A stretch of 64,000 nucleotides of DNA from the IMG/VR virus record IMGVR_UViG_3300035491_000193, positions 95,451-159,450 of that record, one strand, 5' to 3'. The position numbers and the translations under genes were made by a program. Source of the DNA: a virus. Shown here in pieces: positions 1 through 10,440 of the stretch (its first letter is position 1; every line of letters begins with the position of its first letter). The notes beneath the pieces are model-generated. The model was given only the letters and a program-made list of their open reading frames with translations. It was not told the DNA's origin and searched no databases.

Positions 1-1200
1 CTTGTAGCTTTCTGACTGATCCAGCATCCGCTGGTATTCCTTGGTGGTCAGTTGGCCGGCCTCGATATAACGCAGGCTTTCTCGCTTGATGCCGTTGTCA
101 ATAGTGATAGTGGTGTGTTTGACATCCTCCACCTCGACCTCATCGGTAGTCTGGACTATCTCAAAATCTTCCTCTTCGTCAAGGTCAACCTGCTCATCAA
201 ACGCTTCAATCTCCTCTTCAACCGAGCGATCGTCACCATCAGTAAGTTCAGGCGGATCGAATTCACCACTGTCTTCCAGCAGCTCGGTCTCGACGATCTC
301 GCCATCAGCATCCTCACGTACAGACACCGGTTGGGTGGACTTCACCTCTTCCGGTAATTGCTCCGTTGCTAGTTGGATGATGGACTTGTACAGACGCCGC
401 TGCATTTGGATAGGATCAATGCGTCCACCGGTGTCGCCTTTACGCCAGAAATCCAACTCACCCAAGTTCATGTTGATGAATCGATCATTGAACGACACGA
501 TCACGTTGATCCGCTTGAGTTGCTCTGCCGTGAGTTTACCCAACATGCCGCGGTCACGGTTAGGACCAAACCAAGTCCATAGTTCCAGGAAGAACAGTAC
601 GTTATCGTCACGCATACTGTCGAGGGTGTTGAGGTCGCGTCGCTTCTCCGCCTTACGCAACTTAGCAATGGACGGCAACTTGGTCGGAATGGTCAACAGT
701 AGGTAGTTCTGTCGTTGGAAAGTAGAGCTGTCGTGGCCCAGCTGGGTAACCACAGTTAGGAACAAGTTGTACCAGCGCTCATACCACGACATCAACGTTT
801 CGGGGTAACGATAAACCCGACGCAACGGAGCATAGTTCTCCACCATCATGACCCGATCGTCACGCTCCACCAATTTGGTATTGTGCATCATCCGCAGACG
901 TTTGTTGATCCGATGATATTGAATCACGTCGCGAGCAATGGCGGTCTCCACACGACGGGGTCGGCCGACAGTGCCATGTTCGGCCAGGTGCAGTACGTGG
1001 TTAACCTGAATCAGTTTTTCCGCCTTCTCCAAAATCGGGTGATTCTGCGGCGGGCCAATTTCAGACACCCCATCGGTCGGGATGTAGTGCAGAATACTAC
1101 CCCTGGGTAGTTCGAGCTTCGACAGTGATGCGATACGTGGATTGCCGAACTGTTCGACCCGAATCACTGAAAACTGTCGGTTAAAGTTGCGAAGTAACAT
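1..1200 (-). CDS. Virion RNA polymerase beta subunit, N-terminal part (PhiKZ gp178-like); 3' end lies outside the window
   Basis: ATG at 1200 with an upstream GGAAGGA RBS. The frame is open to position 1, so it is absent from the ORF track. Translation begins MLLRNFNRQFSVIRVEQFGNPRIASLSKLELPRGSILHY, resembling the N-terminus of PhiKZ-type vRNAP beta. It lies directly downstream of the beta-prime gene. Confidence 0.75.
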   Translation of the reverse strand, partial: MLLRNFNRQFSVIRVEQFGNPRIASLSKLELPRGSILHYIPTDGVSEIGPPQNHPILEKAEKLIQVNHVLHLAEHGTVGRPRRVETAIARDVIQYHRINKRLRMMHNTKLVERDDRVMMVENYAPLRRVYRYPETLMSWYERWYNLFLTVVTQLGHDSSTFQRQNYLLLTIPTKLPSIAKLRKAEKRRDLNTLDSMRDDNVLFFLELWTWFGPNRDRGMLGKLTAEQLKRINVIVSFNDRFINMNLGELDFWRKGDTGGRIDPIQMQRRLYKSIIQLATEQLPEEVKSTQPVSVREDADGEIVETELLEDSGEFDPPELTDGDDRSVEEEIEAFDEQVDLDEEEDFEIVQTTDEVEVEDVKHTTITIDNGIKRESLRYIEAGQLTTKEYQRMLDQSESYK

Positions 1201-1228: not shown

Positions 1229-1402
1229 TTATTCAGGGTCAGCCAACAGGTTAAACATGGTACGTTCAATCAAGTCGGTGTTGACATCAATCTTTAGACG
1301 GTCACCATTCACCCAGAACGATGCCTTTTGCATTTGTTTGCGGTTTTCTTCCAGTGCTTCGTCGGTGTAGACGGAATCACCAGATCCAGTGTCACCATCG
1401 AA
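1229..1402 (-). CDS. vRNAP beta-prime subunit (PhiKZ gp180-like), exon 2 (57 aa, FDGDTGSGD...LADPE)
   Basis: Begins TTC GAT GGT GAC (FDGD) immediately after a G at 1403 and is in frame with exon 1. Joining the exons restores the catalytic motif GADFDGD. Confidence 0.9.
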   Translation of the reverse strand, partial: FDGDTGSGDSVYTDEALEENRKQMQKASFWVNGDRLKIDVNTDLIERTMFNLLADPE

Positions 1403-1871
1403 CGTGCATTCATGTCGGACGCAGCCCCGACACAGTTCTCGACAGTCGTTTCCCAACGACCCGAACTTCCCACCCATTACAGGTGGATACTAGACTATCT
1501 TATCACCCTCGGTGAGGGGCCTCCTATTTCGAACAGCCATTGGCTTGCTGCTCTACACCGCGCTACCGGTTAGTCGTTGAACTCGTCCCGTGGTCAATAG
1601 ACGTTAGGGAATCAGCTGCTGATTTAAGCATTGCATCGACCCTTAGCGCGAGGACTTCTCAGCCGTCGCTTGTTATGTGTTAGCGTAGGTCATTCCAACC
1701 CGTCTCCAAGGCGAGACGTTTGACTTTTTTCCGCCTTTCGGCTACAATCACGCTCGCCCTTTCGGACCACGTTGTTGTGTGTTGGACTTTAGCATCTTCC
1801 AGCAATTAAGGAGGTTACCAACTAGGAATTACTCCCCAGTGGGACTAGGGCATCTTTTACAGATACAGTTA
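1403..1871 (-). ncRNA. Self-splicing group I intron, 469 nt, with no internal ORF
   Basis: The 5' exon ends in U (GAU|) and the intron ends in G. Core motifs on the - strand: P AAUUGCUGGAAG (1796-1807), Q AAUCAGCAG (1616-1624), R GUUCAACGACUAA (1570-1582), S AAGAUAGUCUAG (1490-1501). R and S give the GACUA/UAGUC P7 pairing. Several GAAA-capped hairpins are present. Confidence 0.92.
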
Positions 1872-3308
1872 ATCAGCACCGAGTTCCACCAGGTTGCTCG
1901 GGTGTGGTGCCATAGAGGTAACAAATTCAGTTACGGTACGATCTGGGAAATCGATGGCCGGTTTTGTCTTTCGTGTTTCCCAGTCCGCATCCAGCTCCCA
2001 CTTCATCTTGGTTCTGGCAGTGGTGGTCAATCTTATAGTAGAGGAGTACGTACTGCCCTGACCAGTTACGGGGTAGCGGGTGACCATGGTGAAATAGTCA
2101 TTCCACTTATCGTAGCCGCTCAAATACAGCAACTCAGCGTACGTGATGCCGCTCACTTTCGAACGATCAAGTGTCTCCGGGAATTCCTGAATATCGTGAA
2201 ATACCCGGAACTGTTTACCATCATCGTAGATCAGGGCGATGTATCTGCCGTCAACCTTCAACGGTTGATGTTTGTCTTCTGTGTGGTGGAAGTCAGTGAT
2301 GAGCTTCTCCACCCCCTCGTCGGTGGTGTACAGGTCGTAGTCTTCCGGCGACACCATCACCATGTCGCGTTTTAGTGATTTCGGGTCGATAAGGTATAGT
2401 GCCCCGTTACCTGCGTCGACTGGTGGCAGGTAGCGAGTACGGACCGCGTGTATCGCCACCGGTAGCAACGACTTCATCCCCTGATACATCCCCATCAGGG
2501 TGTCGGTGGGACGAATCTCGTCTTCCCGGTCCATCACGGGACTAGAGGCATCCATGGAGGAGATCACGTTTCTCGTACCGTTAAAGATACGTCGTGAGGT
2601 CATCTTGCCACGAATGCCGCCCTTCTTACCATCCAGGTACTCGAAGAAGTACTTATAGATCTCACAAAACGTTTCCTGCAGACGCCACCGGGCGTTATCT
2701 AGCAGGGGGTTGTTTTTGTTACCGACATTGGGGATGGTTTTACTGACAGAGAGCAGTTTACGATACAACGGGTTGATGTCGTATTCTTGTTCTTGTCCGT
2801 CTGGCTTAACTTCCAAATCACGCAAGCCGGCTGGCATTACCAATACGTATCGGCCGAGTGCGATCGATCGGAATTTGTTAAGGAGGTTAATCGACTCCTT
2901 ACGGTCGTTGCTGGCGGTTTCCTTCGGTGTGAGGTCGTGAAATTTACTGATAAAGAAACTGTACCCTGTCCCCGCCCCCGCGTCGCCTGGGGCGGCCGGG
3001 TGGAAGTCCTTTTCTTTTTCGTCCCACACCGCGTACCGTTTCCCACTCATCACCTCTTTATACAGGCGCTTCAGTTCGAACAGCGTCAAGGCAATCGCCG
3101 GAGAGATAATGTCGATGTTAACATCGATGTACGAGTATGTCAGGTCGCGCTGCTCGCTACCTACAGGACCAAAAGTGGTGGTGGAGTAGAGACCTTCTGA
3201 ATGAAAGTTTTTCGTGGCACCTTCGAAGGTGTCGAGGGTGGTCACTGGCCGGAGTTTAGACACTACCGACTTATCCACATTGAGCAGATAAAACGTTAAC
3301 CAATCCAT
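1872..3308 (-). CDS. vRNAP beta-prime subunit (PhiKZ gp180-like), exon 1 (479 aa; spliced product 536 aa)
   Basis: Beta-prime-like motifs FGPVG, LVMPAGLRD, KKGGIRGK...RRIFNGTRNV and RYP; the ORF stops at ELGAD. The likely start is ATG 3308 (MDWLTF), because the longer ORF-track start overlaps the tape-measure gene. Confidence 0.9.
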
Positions 3309-3330: not shown

Positions 3331-6300
3331 ATGGCAAAAAAAGAAGATTTGGAGCTCGACGATTGGGATCTCGACGATGAGTTAGATTTCGATGCGGACT
3401 TCGAGCCCCCGTCAATGGCGCCACCGTCCGGTCGCGAAGCCGTCATGTCCATCCCCGCCAAGGCGGTGACGAGTGCTGCCTCGACGATTGCTGGTGAGGG
3501 CAAACGTCGGAAGCTGATCCTGGACTCACTTCCCAAAGATTACACGGTGGCGGCGGATGCATATGATAACATCGCCAGCGAAGGCACCGCGGTGTATCGG
3601 GAGGCGAAGGATCAACTCCGTCAGACCAAGATAGAGCTGAAAAAGGCAGGGCGGGAAGCGCTGCCGATGCTCAAACAGTACCTGCCGGAATCGCTCACCA
3701 AGCGGGTAGAAAAATGGACCAAAGACGACAGCAGCACTGGCAACTATGCACATGTCGATGAGCGTCAAGCGGCAATTGATGCCGCACTTAGCGACACCTT
3801 CCAGGTCAAGTCAGAGGAGGCCCGTAAGGAAAAACTGAAAGAGCGGGCCGAGGATGAGCTGAAAGAGTCAGCAGACATCTTGCGGCAAAACCGTCTGCAT
3901 GAATCGCTGGCCGGCGTACATGCCAACACGGATGCAATGGTGGGGTACCAGACTGTCACCACCAACTACCGCAGGAAGATGCTGGAAATCAACTACCGGC
4001 AGTACTACGCCTTGACGGATCTGCTGGACATCACCAAATCCAGTATGGAGAAGCTGGTCCCGGCCTCAGAATCAATCGTACGCAACACCGCATTGCCTGA
4101 CTATGCCAAGGAAGAGTTCTTGGAAATTGGTCAAGCAATGCTGAAGCGGAAGATACTGTCTGCATTGTCGCCGGCTGAGTTTGCGAGATCCTACCTGTCG
4201 CAACTCGGCACTAATGCCCGCCGCGCCCTCAGTGATTTCGGCAGTGGTGTGCGGGACAACATCAGCATGGTGGGTGGTGTGGTCGGAATGATGGGGGATG
4301 ACTCGTCAGAAGACGATTCACATTTGTCACCTGCCCAGAAACGACTTAAGGCAGCACAAACCGGCGCTGGTATGGCTGGCGGCATGCTTGCCAGGAAATA
4401 TATCCAGCCACATATTCGCAAGATTCAGGAGAAGCTGCGCGAGCAGGGTGAGGGTAATGAAGCGCTGGCTAGCTTTGGTCGTCGCGCACGTTATAATCTC
4501 ACTAACTTGCCGGAGATCCTGAACACGTACGCCAAGGACAACAACTACGAGGGGCAGCATGGGTGGTTGGGGTCACTGGCTGCATTGCTTCAGGATATCA
4601 TGCCGTCGTACGACGGCGATACCGTGGGCGTCACTGACGTAACCGGGGAAGAGTTGGAACGCGCTGTGCCGTGGTCGCGGCGCAGTGACTTGACCCTGAA
4701 CGAAGTGTTACCTGGCTGGCTGTCCAAGATCCACGGTGCCCTGACTGGGGTGGATGAGCAATACGATCATACTACCAAGCAGTTCGTTTCAACTGACGTG
4801 ATTCGCAATCGTATCCGCGACACGGTAGGTGACCAGGAGACACGAGAGTACGTACGTCAAGAAATCGATCGGCTGGTCGACATCATCGATCCGGACAAGG
4901 AACTGTCTGCACAAGACCGTACAGTGCTGGGCCGGGTGTTGGATGAGAAGATCCGTAAAGTGGAGTCATTCGACGTTCGCGATTTGGCCAACAGCTACGA
5001 CGCGTACGGTAGCGCAGGTTATAACCATGACGTCATGGATCTGATGACCCACTTTGGTCAGATCGAGTACGACAAGCCGCATCAGGAGAAGCTCAACATT
5101 GAGATCTCCGACGAGTTGCGGCGCTTGCGGGAGTCGATTACGCCAGTACAAGCGGCCGTCGATGAGATGACCGGTTTGTACGGCCACAATGCCGTGGCTA
5201 ACTCCGGCGTGCTGGATCAAGATCTGTCGCTCAACAAGGCCATGGTGGACTCGTACAGTAATGTGGCGGACATTCACCCGGCATCGCCAGAAGCTCGCGC
5301 TCGGGTAGCTAAGGTGGTGGAAGAAGTCGGCAAGGTTATCCTGGACCCAACTGTCGAAGTCAATATCCGCGACGTCACCGCGGACGTGTACCAAGGTGTC
5401 AAGGACGCACTGTACCAGAGTGAGCCCAACCTGTACATGGTGCTCAAGGACGCCATGTTGGCCCACCGTCCGCCCAGTACCCCGCTGGCCAGCACCGTCG
5501 TGTCGGTAGCTCAACCCAAGACGGAGGAGGACCGGGACTACACTGCTGAGATCTACACAGGGGTCCGCGATGCACTGTACTATAGCGACCCGAACATGTA
5601 CAGTGTCCTATCTGACGTGTTATACGACAGAGACCGGCCTAATAACCTTTATACGGTGATCGCTACCGCATGTGGGGAATTAGCAAAGGGGAATGATCAA
5701 AGCGATCGTGGTGCGTTAGAGAGCGTTGTAGAACGTATTCATGCGCAACTGGTGGCCAACGACATTTCCCCACAGGTCGATGCTATCCTTGACCTGATCG
5801 AGCACATGGCTATTTCAGGTATCGGTACGTACGAACAACCAGAAGGTGAAAAACCTGGCTACTTTGGGAAGTTCGGACAGCACTTGAGGGGTACCAAGGA
5901 CAAAACCGTTGACAAGGTGGTGTCGGGTTATACTTGGGGCAGGGAGAAGTTAGGTAAAGGAAAAGACTGGCTTAAGAGTAAAATCGGCAGTCCGTTTAAG
6001 GCCATTGGTGCACTTAAGGATACAGTGACTGACACTGTAGGTTCAGCCTGGCGTGGTTTAACTGGCACTCGGGACATCTACGACGATCAGGGTAATGTCG
6101 TGTTGTCTGGTCGAATCCTCAAGATGGGTCAGTATTTTGATGCGGACGGGAAGGTTATCAAAACCCTTAAAGACATCAAGGGTGCGATTTATGATCGCGA
6201 TGGCAACATTGTACTGTCTGCCGAGGAGGTTCTTCGCAACGCCAGTAAGTATACCTACTACACCAAACAGGGTTGGCGCAAGCTGTCCGAGATGGTCGGT

Positions 6301-9300
6301 GGCGGTGTTGGTAGTGCGGCCAATCGGGTTGTCTCCATCCCTAAAAACGTAGCTCGGTTCCTTAAAGACCAGGGCGGCGGCGTCCTCAACAGTCTCCGCA
6401 CGTCAGGTGACATTTACGTGAAAGGGGAGGATGAGCCGCGTCTGAAACGCCACCTGATGCTGAAGGGGTTTTACTTCGACAAGAAGACCGGCAAAGTCAT
6501 CCGTGACGTAGACGATATCGGCGGTCCAGTTGTGACGGGGGAGGGGCATGAGGTTATCAGCGCCAGTGAGTTGGCAGATCCGAATTTCCAACTAGTGGAC
6601 GTGAACGGTGAACCCTTTAAGTCAGTGGTTAGTAAGGCGGTCGATAAAGTCGGCAGTGTCTATCGATTCGGGAAGCGGGCAGTTACTGGCGCTGTTGGTT
6701 TCGCGGCTGACTTGCTTGGTGCGGGCGCTGAAGGGATTCGTGGTTTCTTCAAAGGTTTCGTCACCACGGAGGATGTCAAAGGCATCAAGACAGTTCTGAC
6801 GGACATCTACGAGCTGCTTGACGAGCGCCTGCCGGGCGGTAGTGAGAAGTCCGAGCCGGAGGAGAAAGTTGCTGGCGATGCCGACGGCGACGGTGTTCGT
6901 GACAACAGTTTCCGGGACATCTTCCGCCGTCGTCGGGAGGCTCGGGCCGCCGCCGCTGAAAAGAACGAGGTACCCAATCGCCCGGAGGATGTCGATAAGA
7001 AATCGCCTCTCGGCAAAATACTGGGCGCATTGATGGGTGTTGGCGGCTTCGTGGCAGACAAGTTCATGGGTCTGATGGGTACTGCTTCTACATTCTTCGT
7101 GACCAAGGTGTTGGGCGGTCTTACCGACGGGTTTGGCAAGCTCGCTGCCAAGTTTGCTGGCTGGGTTGCTACAGCGATGGCTGGTAAGCAAGCCGCAGAT
7201 ACCGTAGGGGAGGTGCTGGACACTGCGGGAGACATCGACTTGGAACGGGAGGGTCGTAGGCGCGGAGGTCGTCGTGGCCGTATGCGTGATGGACTTCGCC
7301 GTGGCGGTAATGCAGCGAAGAACGCCGCTAAGCGCGCCACCTCCAAAGTGTCCGAAAAGATGGCCCAGCGTGCCGCCGCAAAGGCCGCCACACAAACCGC
7401 TTCCCGCGCGGCGGCCCAAACTGCCGCACGTCAGGCTGTTATACAGGGAGGTAGGATGGCGGCCACTGCCGGCGTGACTGCCGCCGCGTCAGGCATCTCG
7501 ATGGCTGGCGTAGGTAGTGCCGTCGCATCTGGTGCGGCCGCCGTGGGGTCGTTCTTGACCGCACCTGTGGTGTTGGGGGCCATCGCCGTAGGGGGGCTTG
7601 GTTACCTTGCGTACCGCATTGCGACAAGCGAGGACAATGGTCCGTTGGATCAGATTCGTTTTGCGCAATATGGTCTGGAGGATTACGACGATGCCAAACA
7701 TGACGAAGTTGCCAAGATCCGGTATTTAGAGGCAGAGGTCGGTAAGTACGTTGCTTACAATAAGGATGGGGTGGCTTCCATTCGTGGCTTTGCTGATGAA
7801 ACCGCCATTCAGGTGGCGGCTGGCTTTGGCGTTGACGTCGATAATGCAGAGGACTTGCAGGCATACGAAGATTGGTTCTACGGCCGCTTCTGTTCTGTCT
7901 ACCTGTTGTGGGCCAGTCGTCTTCGGCAGTTATCGCCATCATCGACCATGGGTGAATTGGAAAAGACCGTAACTGATGCCAAGATTCGTGCGGAGATGGC
8001 CCAACGAACACTGTTGCCCGAGACTCATCCAGTCTTCAACGTAATGGTGTCGCCGTTCGAGCCTGGTTGGTTTGGTCGGGATGACCTGCTGTCTGGCACT
8101 AAGGTACGCGGCATCCATTTGGACCTGCTCAGCGACTTGAAAAAGAAAGCTGAGAAAGCCAAAGACAAGGTTCTTGCGTCAGCCGAGAAGGACACGACCG
8201 TGGTCGCAATAAAGAGCCCTGCACCAACCGATTCAGGTTCAGGCAGTGTGGTAACGGTCAAGAAATCGGCGAACCCTAACCACGACACCGACAATAAAAA
8301 ATCCTCAACTGCCAGCGTCGATGAGATCATGTTGGATGCTGCCTCGGGCAACTTCCGCATGGGTATCATCGAACTGTCTGCCACTGAGGCGGTGCGGATG
8401 CGTGCATACGGCTTAACCAAACTGAAAACATCAAAGGTATTAACCTTGATGGCATTGGAGCTGGATGCACATGAGCACATCGTGATCAGTCGCGGCATTG
8501 CCAAATTTAAAGGAAGTGTGGAAGAGTTTGCAAAAGTCCACATGCCCGAGTTTGGCAGTAACTACGACGATGCCGAACAACAGACCGCATGGAGAGGGTG
8601 GTTCACGCACCGCTTCTTACCGATCTTGCTGAAATACCTATCTGTACTCAACATGCACGCGCCAAACGCGCGCCCGTTCGATATCGTTGAGTCGTCCACA
8701 ACCCCGTACCTTGCCGACGTGGCTAAATCGCTGACGTGGGCCAGGGTTGAAATAGGAGGTGAAAACGTTGGGGTGTGGTCTGTGATGTTTAACCCCTGGA
8801 ACGACAAAGACCCGATCAACACGGATCCGAAATCGACCCAGGGCAACATCGAGTTTCTGGAGAGCCGTAAGGCTGCAGCCGAACTGGCAGAGAAGACCAT
8901 CGATCCAAACCGGCCAACCGCACAAGTGCTGACCGCCGGCACTAACAACCGGCCACGCGCCGACAGCGGTAGTGGTACTGGACCGGTGGTCACTGCGGGG
9001 TCGGCTGACCAACAGCGGCAGCAGGTAAGTAGCGCCATCGACAACGCTTGGAATAACCGGCAGGTGGGTGGTCCAGGCGGTAACAGCGGCGGCCCTATCT
9101 CTAGTAGCGGTATTCCGATAGGAGATATATCTGACCCGGTAGATCCAAACGGTGCATATGCCAAGATCAAGCTGGCTTCGCATAGTCGCGGCGACGTGGC
9201 CAAGATGATCAGTGAGGTCTCCAAAGCGACAGGGATGGACGAGAACCTGATGTTGACAGTAGCCATGATGGAATCGTCATTGAATCCAAATGCAGGTGCG

Positions 9301-10440
9301 ACAACATCGTCTGCCAAAGGCCTGTATCAGTTCTTGGTGGGTAAGGACGGCAAGAGCGGGACTTGGGGCGAGCAATTGCGTGCCCACGCCAACAAGTACG
9401 GCATTCCGTCTAATGCCAGTGCGTTCGATCCGGTGGCTAACGCCCTCCTGGGGGCGGAGTATCTGCGGTTGGGTGCACGAACGGTTGGGAACTTGTCGCC
9501 GAGCGGTAAGGCCACACCAGTGGACCTGTACCTGTCCCATTTCCTTGGGCCGGGCGGTGCACGAACGTTCTTGCGTGGTCTGAAGAAACATCCAGATAAA
9601 AGCGTGTTGCCAGAATGGCAGAAACAAGCCAAGGCAAATACCTGGGTGTTCTACGCGGGCAACCGTCCGCGCAGCTACCGAGAAGTGTACATGGAACTGC
9701 AGCGGCGTGCCCGGAACGCCTTTAACTCCGTGAGTCAGTATGCTTCGGTTCCGGGTCAGAAGGCGATCGAGCCGCCAATGGCCCCACCTTCATCGCCCGA
9801 GGCAGCGTCGGTGGCTTCAGCCTCGGTTTCTGGCAATGTGGTGGATACTCCAGCACCGAACATGGGCGGTGGGGCGATGCCCTCGCCAGCAGCAGATAGT
9901 GGTCTGCCCGAGTCATCCACGCCAGAACAACGAGAAGCGGTGACGGTTGCAAAAGCCAAGCAAGACGTTCGTCAAGTAACAGCAGAACGCAACCAGGGTG
10001 CGGTGTCTACTATCATACCGTCTGAGGCACCGTCAGTGGGGTCCAGCATTGCCGAGCGCACGGTTGGCGCCATGCGTAAAAAGGTAGGTGATGGTCCCCA
10101 CCGCGTCGACATGGAACGGTATGAGACCGCGGTTAAAGACGAGGTGATGACCAACACGGTAGCGCCTGCCATGAACTTGTCGGAAGTAATGGCCTCCATT
10201 ACACGCCAACAGCGAGCCATGGCTGAGGCAACCAACGGTATCCTCAATGAACAGTTGCTGGTTCAGCGGGAGATGGCCGCCACCCTCCTGAGTATTCGTG
10301 ACCAGTTACTAAAATCATCGAATGCACCAAAATCGCCTGTCGCCCCACCTACTGTGGCGTCCAGTCAGGGCAAAGTGAAAGCCGAGCCTGCAGTTACACA
10401 CCAACGGGGAGTGATCTCCATGGCGCGTGAGTATTTTTAA
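3331..10440 (+). CDS. Tape-measure protein / structural lytic transglycosylase (PhiKZ gp181-like), 2369 aa
   Basis: Very large protein with a GAGGT RBS. The C-terminal region has SLT motifs MMESSLNP, AKGLYQF, ALLGAEYL and YLSHFLGPGG. It sits divergent to the beta-prime gene, as I recall for PhiKZ-like phages. Confidence 0.88.
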   Translation: MAKKEDLELDDWDLDDELDFDADFEPPSMAPPSGREAVMSIPAKAVTSAASTIAGEGKRRKLILDSLPKDYTVAADAYDNIASEGTAVYREAKDQLRQTKIELKKAGREALPMLKQYLPESLTKRVEKWTKDDSSTGNYAHVDERQAAIDAALSDTFQVKSEEARKEKLKERAEDELKESADILRQNRLHESLAGVHANTDAMVGYQTVTTNYRRKMLEINYRQYYALTDLLDITKSSMEKLVPASESIVRNTALPDYAKEEFLEIGQAMLKRKILSALSPAEFARSYLSQLGTNARRALSDFGSGVRDNISMVGGVVGMMGDDSSEDDSHLSPAQKRLKAAQTGAGMAGGMLARKYIQPHIRKIQEKLREQGEGNEALASFGRRARYNLTNLPEILNTYAKDNNYEGQHGWLGSLAALLQDIMPSYDGDTVGVTDVTGEELERAVPWSRRSDLTLNEVLPGWLSKIHGALTGVDEQYDHTTKQFVSTDVIRNRIRDTVGDQETREYVRQEIDRLVDIIDPDKELSAQDRTVLGRVLDEKIRKVESFDVRDLANSYDAYGSAGYNHDVMDLMTHFGQIEYDKPHQEKLNIEISDELRRLRESITPVQAAVDEMTGLYGHNAVANSGVLDQDLSLNKAMVDSYSNVADIHPASPEARARVAKVVEEVGKVILDPTVEVNIRDVTADVYQGVKDALYQSEPNLYMVLKDAMLAHRPPSTPLASTVVSVAQPKTEEDRDYTAEIYTGVRDALYYSDPNMYSVLSDVLYDRDRPNNLYTVIATACGELAKGNDQSDRGALESVVERIHAQLVANDISPQVDAILDLIEHMAISGIGTYEQPEGEKPGYFGKFGQHLRGTKDKTVDKVVSGYTWGREKLGKGKDWLKSKIGSPFKAIGALKDTVTDTVGSAWRGLTGTRDIYDDQGNVVLSGRILKMGQYFDADGKVIKTLKDIKGAIYDRDGNIVLSAEEVLRNASKYTYYTKQGWRKLSEMVGGGVGSAANRVVSIPKNVARFLKDQGGGVLNSLRTSGDIYVKGEDEPRLKRHLMLKGFYFDKKTGKVIRDVDDIGGPVVTGEGHEVISASELADPNFQLVDVNGEPFKSVVSKAVDKVGSVYRFGKRAVTGAVGFAADLLGAGAEGIRGFFKGFVTTEDVKGIKTVLTDIYELLDERLPGGSEKSEPEEKVAGDADGDGVRDNSFRDIFRRRREARAAAAEKNEVPNRPEDVDKKSPLGKILGALMGVGGFVADKFMGLMGTASTFFVTKVLGGLTDGFGKLAAKFAGWVATAMAGKQAADTVGEVLDTAGDIDLEREGRRRGGRRGRMRDGLRRGGNAAKNAAKRATSKVSEKMAQRAAAKAATQTASRAAAQTAARQAVIQGGRMAATAGVTAAASGISMAGVGSAVASGAAAVGSFLTAPVVLGAIAVGGLGYLAYRIATSEDNGPLDQIRFAQYGLEDYDDAKHDEVAKIRYLEAEVGKYVAYNKDGVASIRGFADETAIQVAAGFGVDVDNAEDLQAYEDWFYGRFCSVYLLWASRLRQLSPSSTMGELEKTVTDAKIRAEMAQRTLLPETHPVFNVMVSPFEPGWFGRDDLLSGTKVRGIHLDLLSDLKKKAEKAKDKVLASAEKDTTVVAIKSPAPTDSGSGSVVTVKKSANPNHDTDNKKSSTASVDEIMLDAASGNFRMGIIELSATEAVRMRAYGLTKLKTSKVLTLMALELDAHEHIVISRGIAKFKGSVEEFAKVHMPEFGSNYDDAEQQTAWRGWFTHRFLPILLKYLSVLNMHAPNARPFDIVESSTTPYLADVAKSLTWARVEIGGENVGVWSVMFNPWNDKDPINTDPKSTQGNIEFLESRKAAAELAEKTIDPNRPTAQVLTAGTNNRPRADSGSGTGPVVTAGSADQQRQQVSSAIDNAWNNRQVGGPGGNSGGPISSSGIPIGDISDPVDPNGAYAKIKLASHSRGDVAKMISEVSKATGMDENLMLTVAMMESSLNPNAGATTSSAKGLYQFLVGKDGKSGTWGEQLRAHANKYGIPSNASAFDPVANALLGAEYLRLGARTVGNLSPSGKATPVDLYLSHFLGPGGARTFLRGLKKHPDKSVLPEWQKQAKANTWVFYAGNRPRSYREVYMELQRRARNAFNSVSQYASVPGQKAIEPPMAPPSSPEAASVASASVSGNVVDTPAPNMGGGAMPSPAADSGLPESSTPEQREAVTVAKAKQDVRQVTAERNQGAVSTIIPSEAPSVGSSIAERTVGAMRKKVGDGPHRVDMERYETAVKDEVMTNTVAPAMNLSEVMASITRQQRAMAEATNGILNEQLLVQREMAATLLSIRDQLLKSSNAPKSPVAPPTVASSQGKVKAEPAVTHQRGVISMAREYF

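Follow-up and report, generated by a model that had tools for sequence, protein, structure and literature searches.

A probable group I intron without an endonuclease gene within the catalytic motif of a jumbo-phage virion RNA polymerase gene

How can a phage gene whose open reading frame (ORF) stops in the middle of its catalytic motif encode an RNA polymerase (RNAP) subunit? This question is raised by a locus in a 64,000-nucleotide (nt) stretch of the IMG/VR record IMGVR_UViG_3300035491_000193 (positions 95,451 to 159,450), called the window below. On its minus strand, the ORF of an RNAP beta' subunit runs from the ATG at 3308 (MDWLTFYLLN...) to the GAT at 1874-1872 (...NLVELGAD) and there meets the TAA at 1871-1869. 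The FDGD codons TTC GAT GGT GAC ACT (FDGDTGSGDSVY...) begin at 1402, right after G1403, and this second piece ends at the stop codon 1231-1229. We conclude from sequence comparisons, with a probability of roughly 0.93, that positions 1871..1403 on the minus strand are a true group I intron, of the IA type and without an endonuclease ORF, which interrupts the beta'N gene of a jumbo-phage virion RNAP (vRNAP). The phage, a jumbo phage of the SPN3US/phiKZ-like type, is uncultured and comes from a tar-pit metagenome.

The interrupted gene and its product

We looked at the host gene through its two coding pieces. Exon 1 (1872..3308, minus strand; 479 codons, the final base U1872 being the 5' splice-site U) matched the PHROG family phrog_2986 ('RNA polymerase beta subunit') with E 7e-193 over profile positions 9-484, and exon 2 (1229..1402, minus strand; 57 codons plus the stop, FDGDTGSGDSVYTDEALEENRK...ADPE) covers positions 485-538 of the same family, the two pieces abutting exactly on the profile. 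When exon 1 was compared with Pfam and with PDB sequences, no match was obtained, as expected for so divergent a family. By tblastn, relatives of exon 1 were detected in 309 phage records. The closest belong to the Vibrio phages pVp-JHP1101 (gp171, 73% identity) and pVa-21 (gp166, 72%), followed at about 56% by SPN3US-like jumbo phages of Erwinia, Salmonella and Cronobacter, and in the genomes of these relatives beta'N is a single unbroken coding sequence of 530-537 amino acids. The gene order is also that of the pVp-JHP1101- and SPN3US-type relatives, with a divergent giant tail-fibre/transglycosylase gene, beta'N and the large vRNAP beta N gene. Judging by these matches, the host gene is that of the beta'N subunit of the virion RNAP, the ortholog of SPN3US gp240 and phiKZ gp180. 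SPN3US gp240 is the beta'N of a virion-packaged RNAP and bears the catalytic double-psi beta-barrel motif, and its neighbour gp241 is essential (PMC5105663). Packaging in the virion and a need in early transcription have been described for SPN3US gp240 and gp241 (PMC5105663) and for phiKZ gp178 (PMC11620839). By orthology, the subunit encoded in the window would likewise be packaged in the virion and take part in early transcription.

Joining position 1872 to position 1402 gives a protein of 536 amino acids. This protein was aligned in one tblastn high-scoring segment pair, residues 1-536, with 17 intronless loci from isolates and IMG/VR, among them pVp-JHP1101 gp171, pVa-21 gp166 and SPN3US gp240, and no gap was observed at ...[TG]AD[FYH]DGDT... 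in any of the 17. Exon 2 is near-identical to its orthologs across FDGDT.SGDSVYTD.ALEENR. The removal of the insert is what restores the frame: the insert measures 469 nt, which is not a multiple of three, and exon 2 lies in a different genomic frame from exon 1. Read-through is therefore excluded, and the frame is regained only when the insert is taken out. The initial annotation of this DNA had described a group I intron with U|...G| boundaries whose removal restores GADFDGD in a 536-residue beta'-like subunit. Its coordinates all hold, on the minus strand; the boundaries are borne out by a match to the Rfam model RF00028, by the terminal G1403 and by U1872, and the restored subunit by the contiguity on the PHROG profile and the gapless alignment with orthologs. 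Only its wording that the same frame resumes 469 nt later needs a small correction.

At the junction itself, the first intron bases are UAA, which is the in-frame stop, and the last base is G1403, the omega-G; all five related introns end in ...CG. An internal guide sequence, UAGUC (intron nt 25-29; 1843..1847, minus strand), would pair with GAU|UA (1874-1870) to form P1, with a U1872·G27 wobble at the splice site. It lies directly 5' of the P2 hairpin, as does the guide sequence of a paralogous intron of the same phage (intron B, described below). Two other arrangements were considered and set aside. An alternative guide at G50-A56 (UAGUUGGUA with UGCUGAU|UA) would give 9 base pairs (bp), many of them wobbles, and would leave no P2; moreover, UGGUAA in this segment aligns with the J2/3 UGAUAA of intron B. 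A junction shifted by one base, GAUU|...ACGU|, is the sole alternative that gives the identical messenger RNA, and its intron would end in U.

Introns at the same codon boundary in other jumbo phages

A profile-guided scan of IMG/VR gave 15 orthologous beta'N loci, one of which is interrupted at the same place. In this locus, L120 (IMGVR_UViG_3300016744_000005), exon 1 is 62% identical to that of the window and ends in ...ALGAD at 4937, and exon 2 starts with FDGDTGSADTVY at 6785. The intron in between (4938-6784, 1847 nt) scores 52.4 bits in its core with RF00028 and carries, between P1 and P2, an ORF of 430 amino acids with HNH_3 and NUMOD1. It is the closest ribozyme relative of the window's intron, with 67% identity over 427 aligned nt. 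The two introns have the site and all helices in common, whereas L120 has the ORF and is without hairpin P5.4. We also observed that the near-repeats GUCUCUAU and GUCCUAUC flank the ORF module of L120, and that a deletion between them would lead to the ORF-less layout of the window's intron. Speculatively, these near-repeats hint at a route by which the ORF was lost or gained.

A second intron at this place is found in phiKZ. There, gp180 ends in ...APLGAD followed by TAA, and the intron (NC_004629.1 187788..186346; 1443 nt, core 92.2 bits) carries gp179, an HNH gene of 357 amino acids. Exon 2 (FDGDTVSFNAVYSEE...) follows the intron, and the would-be junction peptide reads LGAD-FDGDTVSFNAVYSEEAIAETDAFFK. 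Both the L120 and the phiKZ introns sit between GAU and UUY of GAD|FDGD. For phiKZ, a recent paper lists introns in gp55 and gp180, both of them RNAP subunit genes (PMC11512511, citing Ceyssens 2014), and the remark in the initial annotation that the class is not new was an understatement, since phiKZ has its intron at the identical codon boundary. In the RefSeq record of phiKZ (186160-189258; loci L136, L137 and L140), gp180 is annotated to ...LGAD*, and between gp179 and gp178 neither the core of the group I intron (186396-186717) nor exon 2 (FDGDTVSFNAVY...) is annotated. The truncated RNAP annotation that had been predicted for such a gene thus already stands in a reference genome. The beta'N site is uninterrupted in PhiPA3 and in many phiKZ-like isolates (SL2, PA7, fnug and others), which makes the distribution of the intron sporadic, as expected of a homing element.

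We compared the region around the 5' splice site in the three intron-bearing alleles. The putative P1 pairs GAU|UA with UAGUC in the window, AGAU|AAA with UUUGUCU in L120 and GAU|UA with UAGUU in phiKZ, and it shows covariation, with U1-A26 in the window against A1-U in L120. The codon of the first Asp of D[FYH]DGD differs between occupied and empty sites: it is GAU in all three intron-bearing alleles (window, L120 and phiKZ) and GAC in 18 of 18 intronless loci (L001-L003, L119, L121-L133 and L135, which are partly redundant). For instance, the intronless site of pVp-JHP1101 reads ...GCCGAC|TTCGATGGC.... Group I splicing requires a U at position -1, and for this reason GAU in place of the synonymous GAC is what an occupied site predicts. 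The GAC/GAU difference could serve as a simple marker of empty and occupied sites in metagenome screening.

Predicted fold, paralogous introns and the assembly

With an E-value threshold, cmscan placed RF00028 at 1470-1856 on the minus strand, over the whole model (model positions 1-253), with 32.2 bits and E 2.4e-6. The conserved core of a group I intron, P3-P9 with the P, Q, R and S elements, is present by this covariance model. In the cmscan alignment these elements are close to consensus (AAUUGCUGGAA, AAUCAGCAGC, GUUCAACGACUA and AAGAUAGUC), and P7 is formed by GACUA and UAGUC.

The structure of the 469-nt intron (1403..1871) was drawn from domain-wise folding plus inspection, all of its parts being on the minus strand. 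A small hairpin is predicted inside the P1 loop (intron nt 6-22). The P2 hairpin (nt 32-51; 1821..1840), closed by a GUAA tetraloop, is followed by J2/3 UGGUAA and shows six compensatory pairs against intron B. The 5' strands of P3 (nt 58-62, CCUCC) and P4 (nt 68-73, UGCUGG) make up the P element AAUUGCUGGAA (1799..1814), as placed by the cmscan alignment and the helix table. Next comes a large P5 extension of about 157 nt (1635..1791), which in the domain fold has several hairpins and two GAAA tetraloops and is common to introns B and C of the same phage and to L120. The 3' strand of P4 (nt 250-255; Q element AAUCAGCAGC) with P6/P6a/P6b occupies 1581..1622, according to cmscan, the helix table and covariation. 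By cmscan and folding, the 5' strand of P7, GACUA (nt 297-301; R element GUUCAACGACUA), is followed by P7.1 and P7.2 (1531..1575). The 3' strand of P3, GGAGG (nt 348-352), P8, J8/7 and the 3' strand of P7, UAGUC (nt 375-379; S element), were placed by cmscan at 1493..1524, and the peripheral hairpins P9, P9.1/P9.1a and P9.2 lie at 1413..1487. Hairpins P7.1 and P7.2 between P7 and P3 are the mark of subgroup IA, home of the classical phage introns. Here P7.1 (nt 302-315) and P7.2 (nt 319-341) fold exactly there, between P7 and the 3' strand of P3, which assigns the intron to that subgroup.

The fold was then compared with the L120 intron, the structure being derived from the window's sequence and the L120 alignment being made by sequence alone. 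Among the model pairs, 66 are the same in both introns and 28 differ on both sides. Canonical pairing is kept in 26 of these 28, against a null of 38% for non-model column pairs (binomial p 2e-9). Compensation was found in P3, P5.1, P5.2c, P5.3, P6a, P7.1 (two pairs), P7.2 (one), P9 (two), P9.1a and P9.2 (five), and therefore also within the P5 extension. The compensatory changes show that the predicted fold was under selection after the divergence from L120. Pairs that appear broken in the 3' halves of introns B and C were not interpreted, the MAFFT alignment being unreliable there.

No ORF of endonuclease size is present in the 469-nt intron, which is thus without the homing endonuclease of a mobile intron. 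An artefactual reading frame of 82 amino acids (1229..1477, minus strand; peptide MGGKFGSLGNDCR...) starts at an ATG in the P9 loop GUAAU and reads into exon 2, and no Shine-Dalgarno sequence was found upstream of the ATG at 1477. A gene caller would report it as an orphan. L120, too, has in its P9 loop an AUG that shares the frame of exon 2 (6707-6784), and the corresponding frame of phiKZ has a stop. This AUG is probably a by-product of conserved RNA sequence that yields a misleading ORF. Taken at face value, it would allow a true split gene, in which polypeptides of 479 and 82 amino acids assemble non-covalently; the ATG lies in frame 25 codons upstream of exon 2 in the window and 26 codons upstream in L120, and the beta and beta' subunits of jumbo phages are naturally split into several polypeptides (PMC7598289). 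This is extremely unlikely, since the break would separate the first Asp from the second inside the Mg-binding loop of seven residues, the ATG sits in a hairpin loop without a Shine-Dalgarno sequence, the phiKZ frame is stopped 8 codons before FDGD, and the region from the ATG to exon 2 evolves by compensatory RNA changes (P9, P9.1a, P9.2) and not as coding sequence. We know of no RNAP split between the first and second Asp of this loop.

Several results weigh against a genuine intron. The score of 32.2 bits is below the RF00028 gathering score of 50, and a default scan of the whole window at gathering thresholds gave no match; the Rfam check that the initial annotation had proposed thus succeeded at the E-value threshold and returned nothing at default settings. 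A whole-genome RF00028 scan that listed introns B and C missed the one in beta'N. P1 is short, at only 5 bp, with the exon contributing to only 3 of them, and a convincing P10 was not found in the window's intron. The minimum-free-energy z-score of -1.51 is not significant and is uninformative. RNA runs were searched for the locus and none was listed, hence splicing was not observed. Finally, a long-read transcriptome study reported no sign that the phiKZ gp179 element is spliced in the conditions used there (PMC10914365), and because of this the in vivo activity of the intron lineage rests on little published evidence. The sub-threshold score, the short P1 with no P10 found, the phiKZ result and the lack of RNA runs with the sequence would all suit a group I intron that has decayed and can no longer be spliced, with beta'N a pseudogene or the phage variant defective. 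Such decay is nevertheless very unlikely: the core helices are all intact, the doubly changed pairs are compensated almost throughout against L120, both exons are intact and conserved, the intron-bearing allele is the sole form seen in five sequencing runs, and the enzyme is essential in relatives (PMC5105663, PMC11620839). What the sequences establish is a complete predicted core under structural selection, in an insert whose exact removal recreates a conserved, essential ORF and whose site is also used by relatives that carry an endonuclease.

The 174-kb IMG/VR record that contains the window holds two paralogous ORF-less group I introns, B and C. Intron B (G000:C1:93620..93151, minus strand; L004:1438-1907) measures 470 nt and scores 50.5 bits with RF00028, which is above the threshold. 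It lies in the adjacent vRNAP beta N gene, about 1.8 kb past the left end of the window, after ...GIMHDD|GKRASF..., and this is the site of the PhiPA3 gp210 HNH intron. After removal of intron B, beta N has 1387 amino acids and is 62% identical to pVp-JHP1101 gp172. The start of this gene, the ortholog of SPN3US gp241 and phiKZ gp178, is found in the window at 1..1200 (minus strand; phrog_3148, E 3.5e-88), from where it extends past the window. On the other side of beta'N and divergent from it, positions 3331-10440 (plus strand) encode a protein of 2369 amino acids with a match to the tail-fibre family phrog_3201 and a C-terminal lytic transglycosylase domain; it is the ortholog of phiKZ gp181 and SPN3US gp239. 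Intron C (about C1:28190-28685, plus strand; locus L005) lies in a DNA polymerase gene (phrog_3011) and scores 23.3 bits with RF00028. In its 3' half it closely resembles B, and its exact splice sites are ambiguous, with TGT repeats at the junction. Over about 90-140 nt, the P3-P5 domain is 74-82% identical among the beta'N intron (A) and introns B and C.

Three related introns that share such a stretch could confuse an assembler, and an assembly chimera, in which an intron from elsewhere in the genome, such as B or C, had wrongly been placed in the RNAP gene, was therefore weighed as well. Contigs of four tar-pit metagenome runs, which may be the source of the record, carry the locus with 0 differences, and independent runs gave long contigs (62 kb) that cover all of it. 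In addition, the 5' junction is spanned by a contig of 366 nt that comes from a separate run, made in 2013 on a hydrocarbon metagenome. Among the DNA contigs aligned to the locus, from five runs, no intron-less form was seen, and the one joint that 'goes back' corresponds to the paralogous P3-P5 stretch of intron B. The 5' and 3' parts that are A's own are orthologous to the same-site introns of L120 and phiKZ, not to B or C, and the GAU codon fits an occupied site. We give a chimera almost no credence.

More distant relatives were looked for in other collections. Megablast of the locus against isolated phages gave no match, and with blastn the intron resembled those of other phages (PhiPA3, Goslar, phiTE and others) only over short parts of the core. 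Unannotated stretches 75-78% identical to parts of the core were observed in Goslar (82491-82594), phiTE (79894-79981) and Av-05 (120822-120888), and these are likely to be further unannotated group I introns. A core-pattern scan of IMG/VR (TTAATTGCTGGAANNNNCTAAAG) detected more than 109 group I introns of phages, all of a generic kind; beyond P3-P5, not one of them is close to the window's.

Predicted splicing and comparison with known systems

If the intron works as its fold suggests, beta'N would be transcribed as a single pre-mRNA in which the intron folds into a P1-P9 core. Free guanosine would attack after U1872, and the freed 3'-OH of exon 1 would then attack after omega-G1403. The ligated message ...GGUGCUGAU|UUCGAUGGUGAC... 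would encode the 536-residue subunit with an intact Mg-binding DFDGD loop, and a 470-nt G-intron would be released. On unspliced RNA, ribosomes would halt at the UAA and give a product of 479 amino acids with only the first of the three catalytic Asp. We infer the chemistry and the efficiency of splicing from established group I chemistry. Given the role of the virion RNAP in relatives, infectivity would depend on splicing. As to its origin, the intron lineage would home to the GAD|FDGD boundary, phiKZ and L120 having kept the HNH gene and the window's copy having lost it or never had it.

The main value of the finding lies in annotation. This intron escapes default pipelines and even an Rfam scan at default settings, and the resulting annotation would give a catalytically dead RNAP subunit of 479 amino acids plus an orphan ORF, which is the same truncation as in phiKZ gp180. 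At one codon boundary, three distant chimallivirus lineages have an intron, which contains an HNH gene in two of them but not in the third, and this series is natural material for the study of a homing cycle at an RNAP active site, from invasion through endonuclease loss to retention or loss. The finding also brings the beta' subunit into the picture of intron-based competition drawn for PhiPA3 and phiKZ. How group I introns work is seen no differently after this finding.

A tentative idea, which we regard as rather unlikely, is that the ORF-less introns act as 'immunity-only' alleles. They would occupy both known vRNAP homing sites, GAD|FDGD in beta'N (the target of enzymes of the phiKZ-gp179 and L120 types) and HDD|G in beta N (that of PhiPA3-gp210-type enzymes), and make them uncuttable by the HNH enzymes of co-infecting jumbo phages. 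If this were true, the phage would have protection without the cost of an endonuclease, and the introns would be kept by phage-phage interference competition and not as selfish leftovers.

Among known systems, the kind of intron, the host gene family and the insertion site are already known, with phiKZ gp180/gp179 as the closest known relative, although by sequence the unpublished L120 intron is closer. As in the window, the phiKZ intron lies in the beta'N gene at the GAU/UUC point of GADFDGD, starts with UAA and ends in ...ACG, and has a P1 of GAU|UA with UAGUY; P7.1/P7.2 and the P5 extension are also present. In contrast, it measures 1443 nt and contains an HNH gene, whereas the window's has 469 nt and no ORF, their cores are about 52% identical, and they score 92 and 32 bits, respectively. 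The lineage and host of phiKZ are also distant from those of the window's phage, exon 1 being 38% identical at the protein level. The PhiPA3 gp210 intron, documented in the vRNAP beta gene gp211/209 (PMC11620839, Birkholz et al. 2024), is likewise a group I intron in a chimallivirus virion RNAP gene at catalytically important Asp residues, and nt 248-380 of the window's intron match its 3' core with 71.6% identity. It differs in lying in beta and not beta', at another site, and in having an active nicking HNH enzyme that is used in phage-phage competition; at exactly this HDD| site in the neighbouring gene, the window's phage has the ORF-less intron B. The classical IA introns (T4 td/nrdB/sunY, SPO1/SP82 DNA polymerase, Twort) share the self-splicing IA architecture. 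They are found in the most conserved codons of essential nucleic-acid-metabolism genes and sporadically among close relatives (PMC12908238). Unlike them, the window's intron has a virion-packaged multisubunit RNAP gene as its host, no ORF and an unusually large P5 extension. Two points are new relative to these systems: this member has no ORF and belongs to a distant SPN3US-like phage that is uncultured, and the neighbouring RNAP gene holds another ORF-less intron, at the site used in PhiPA3.

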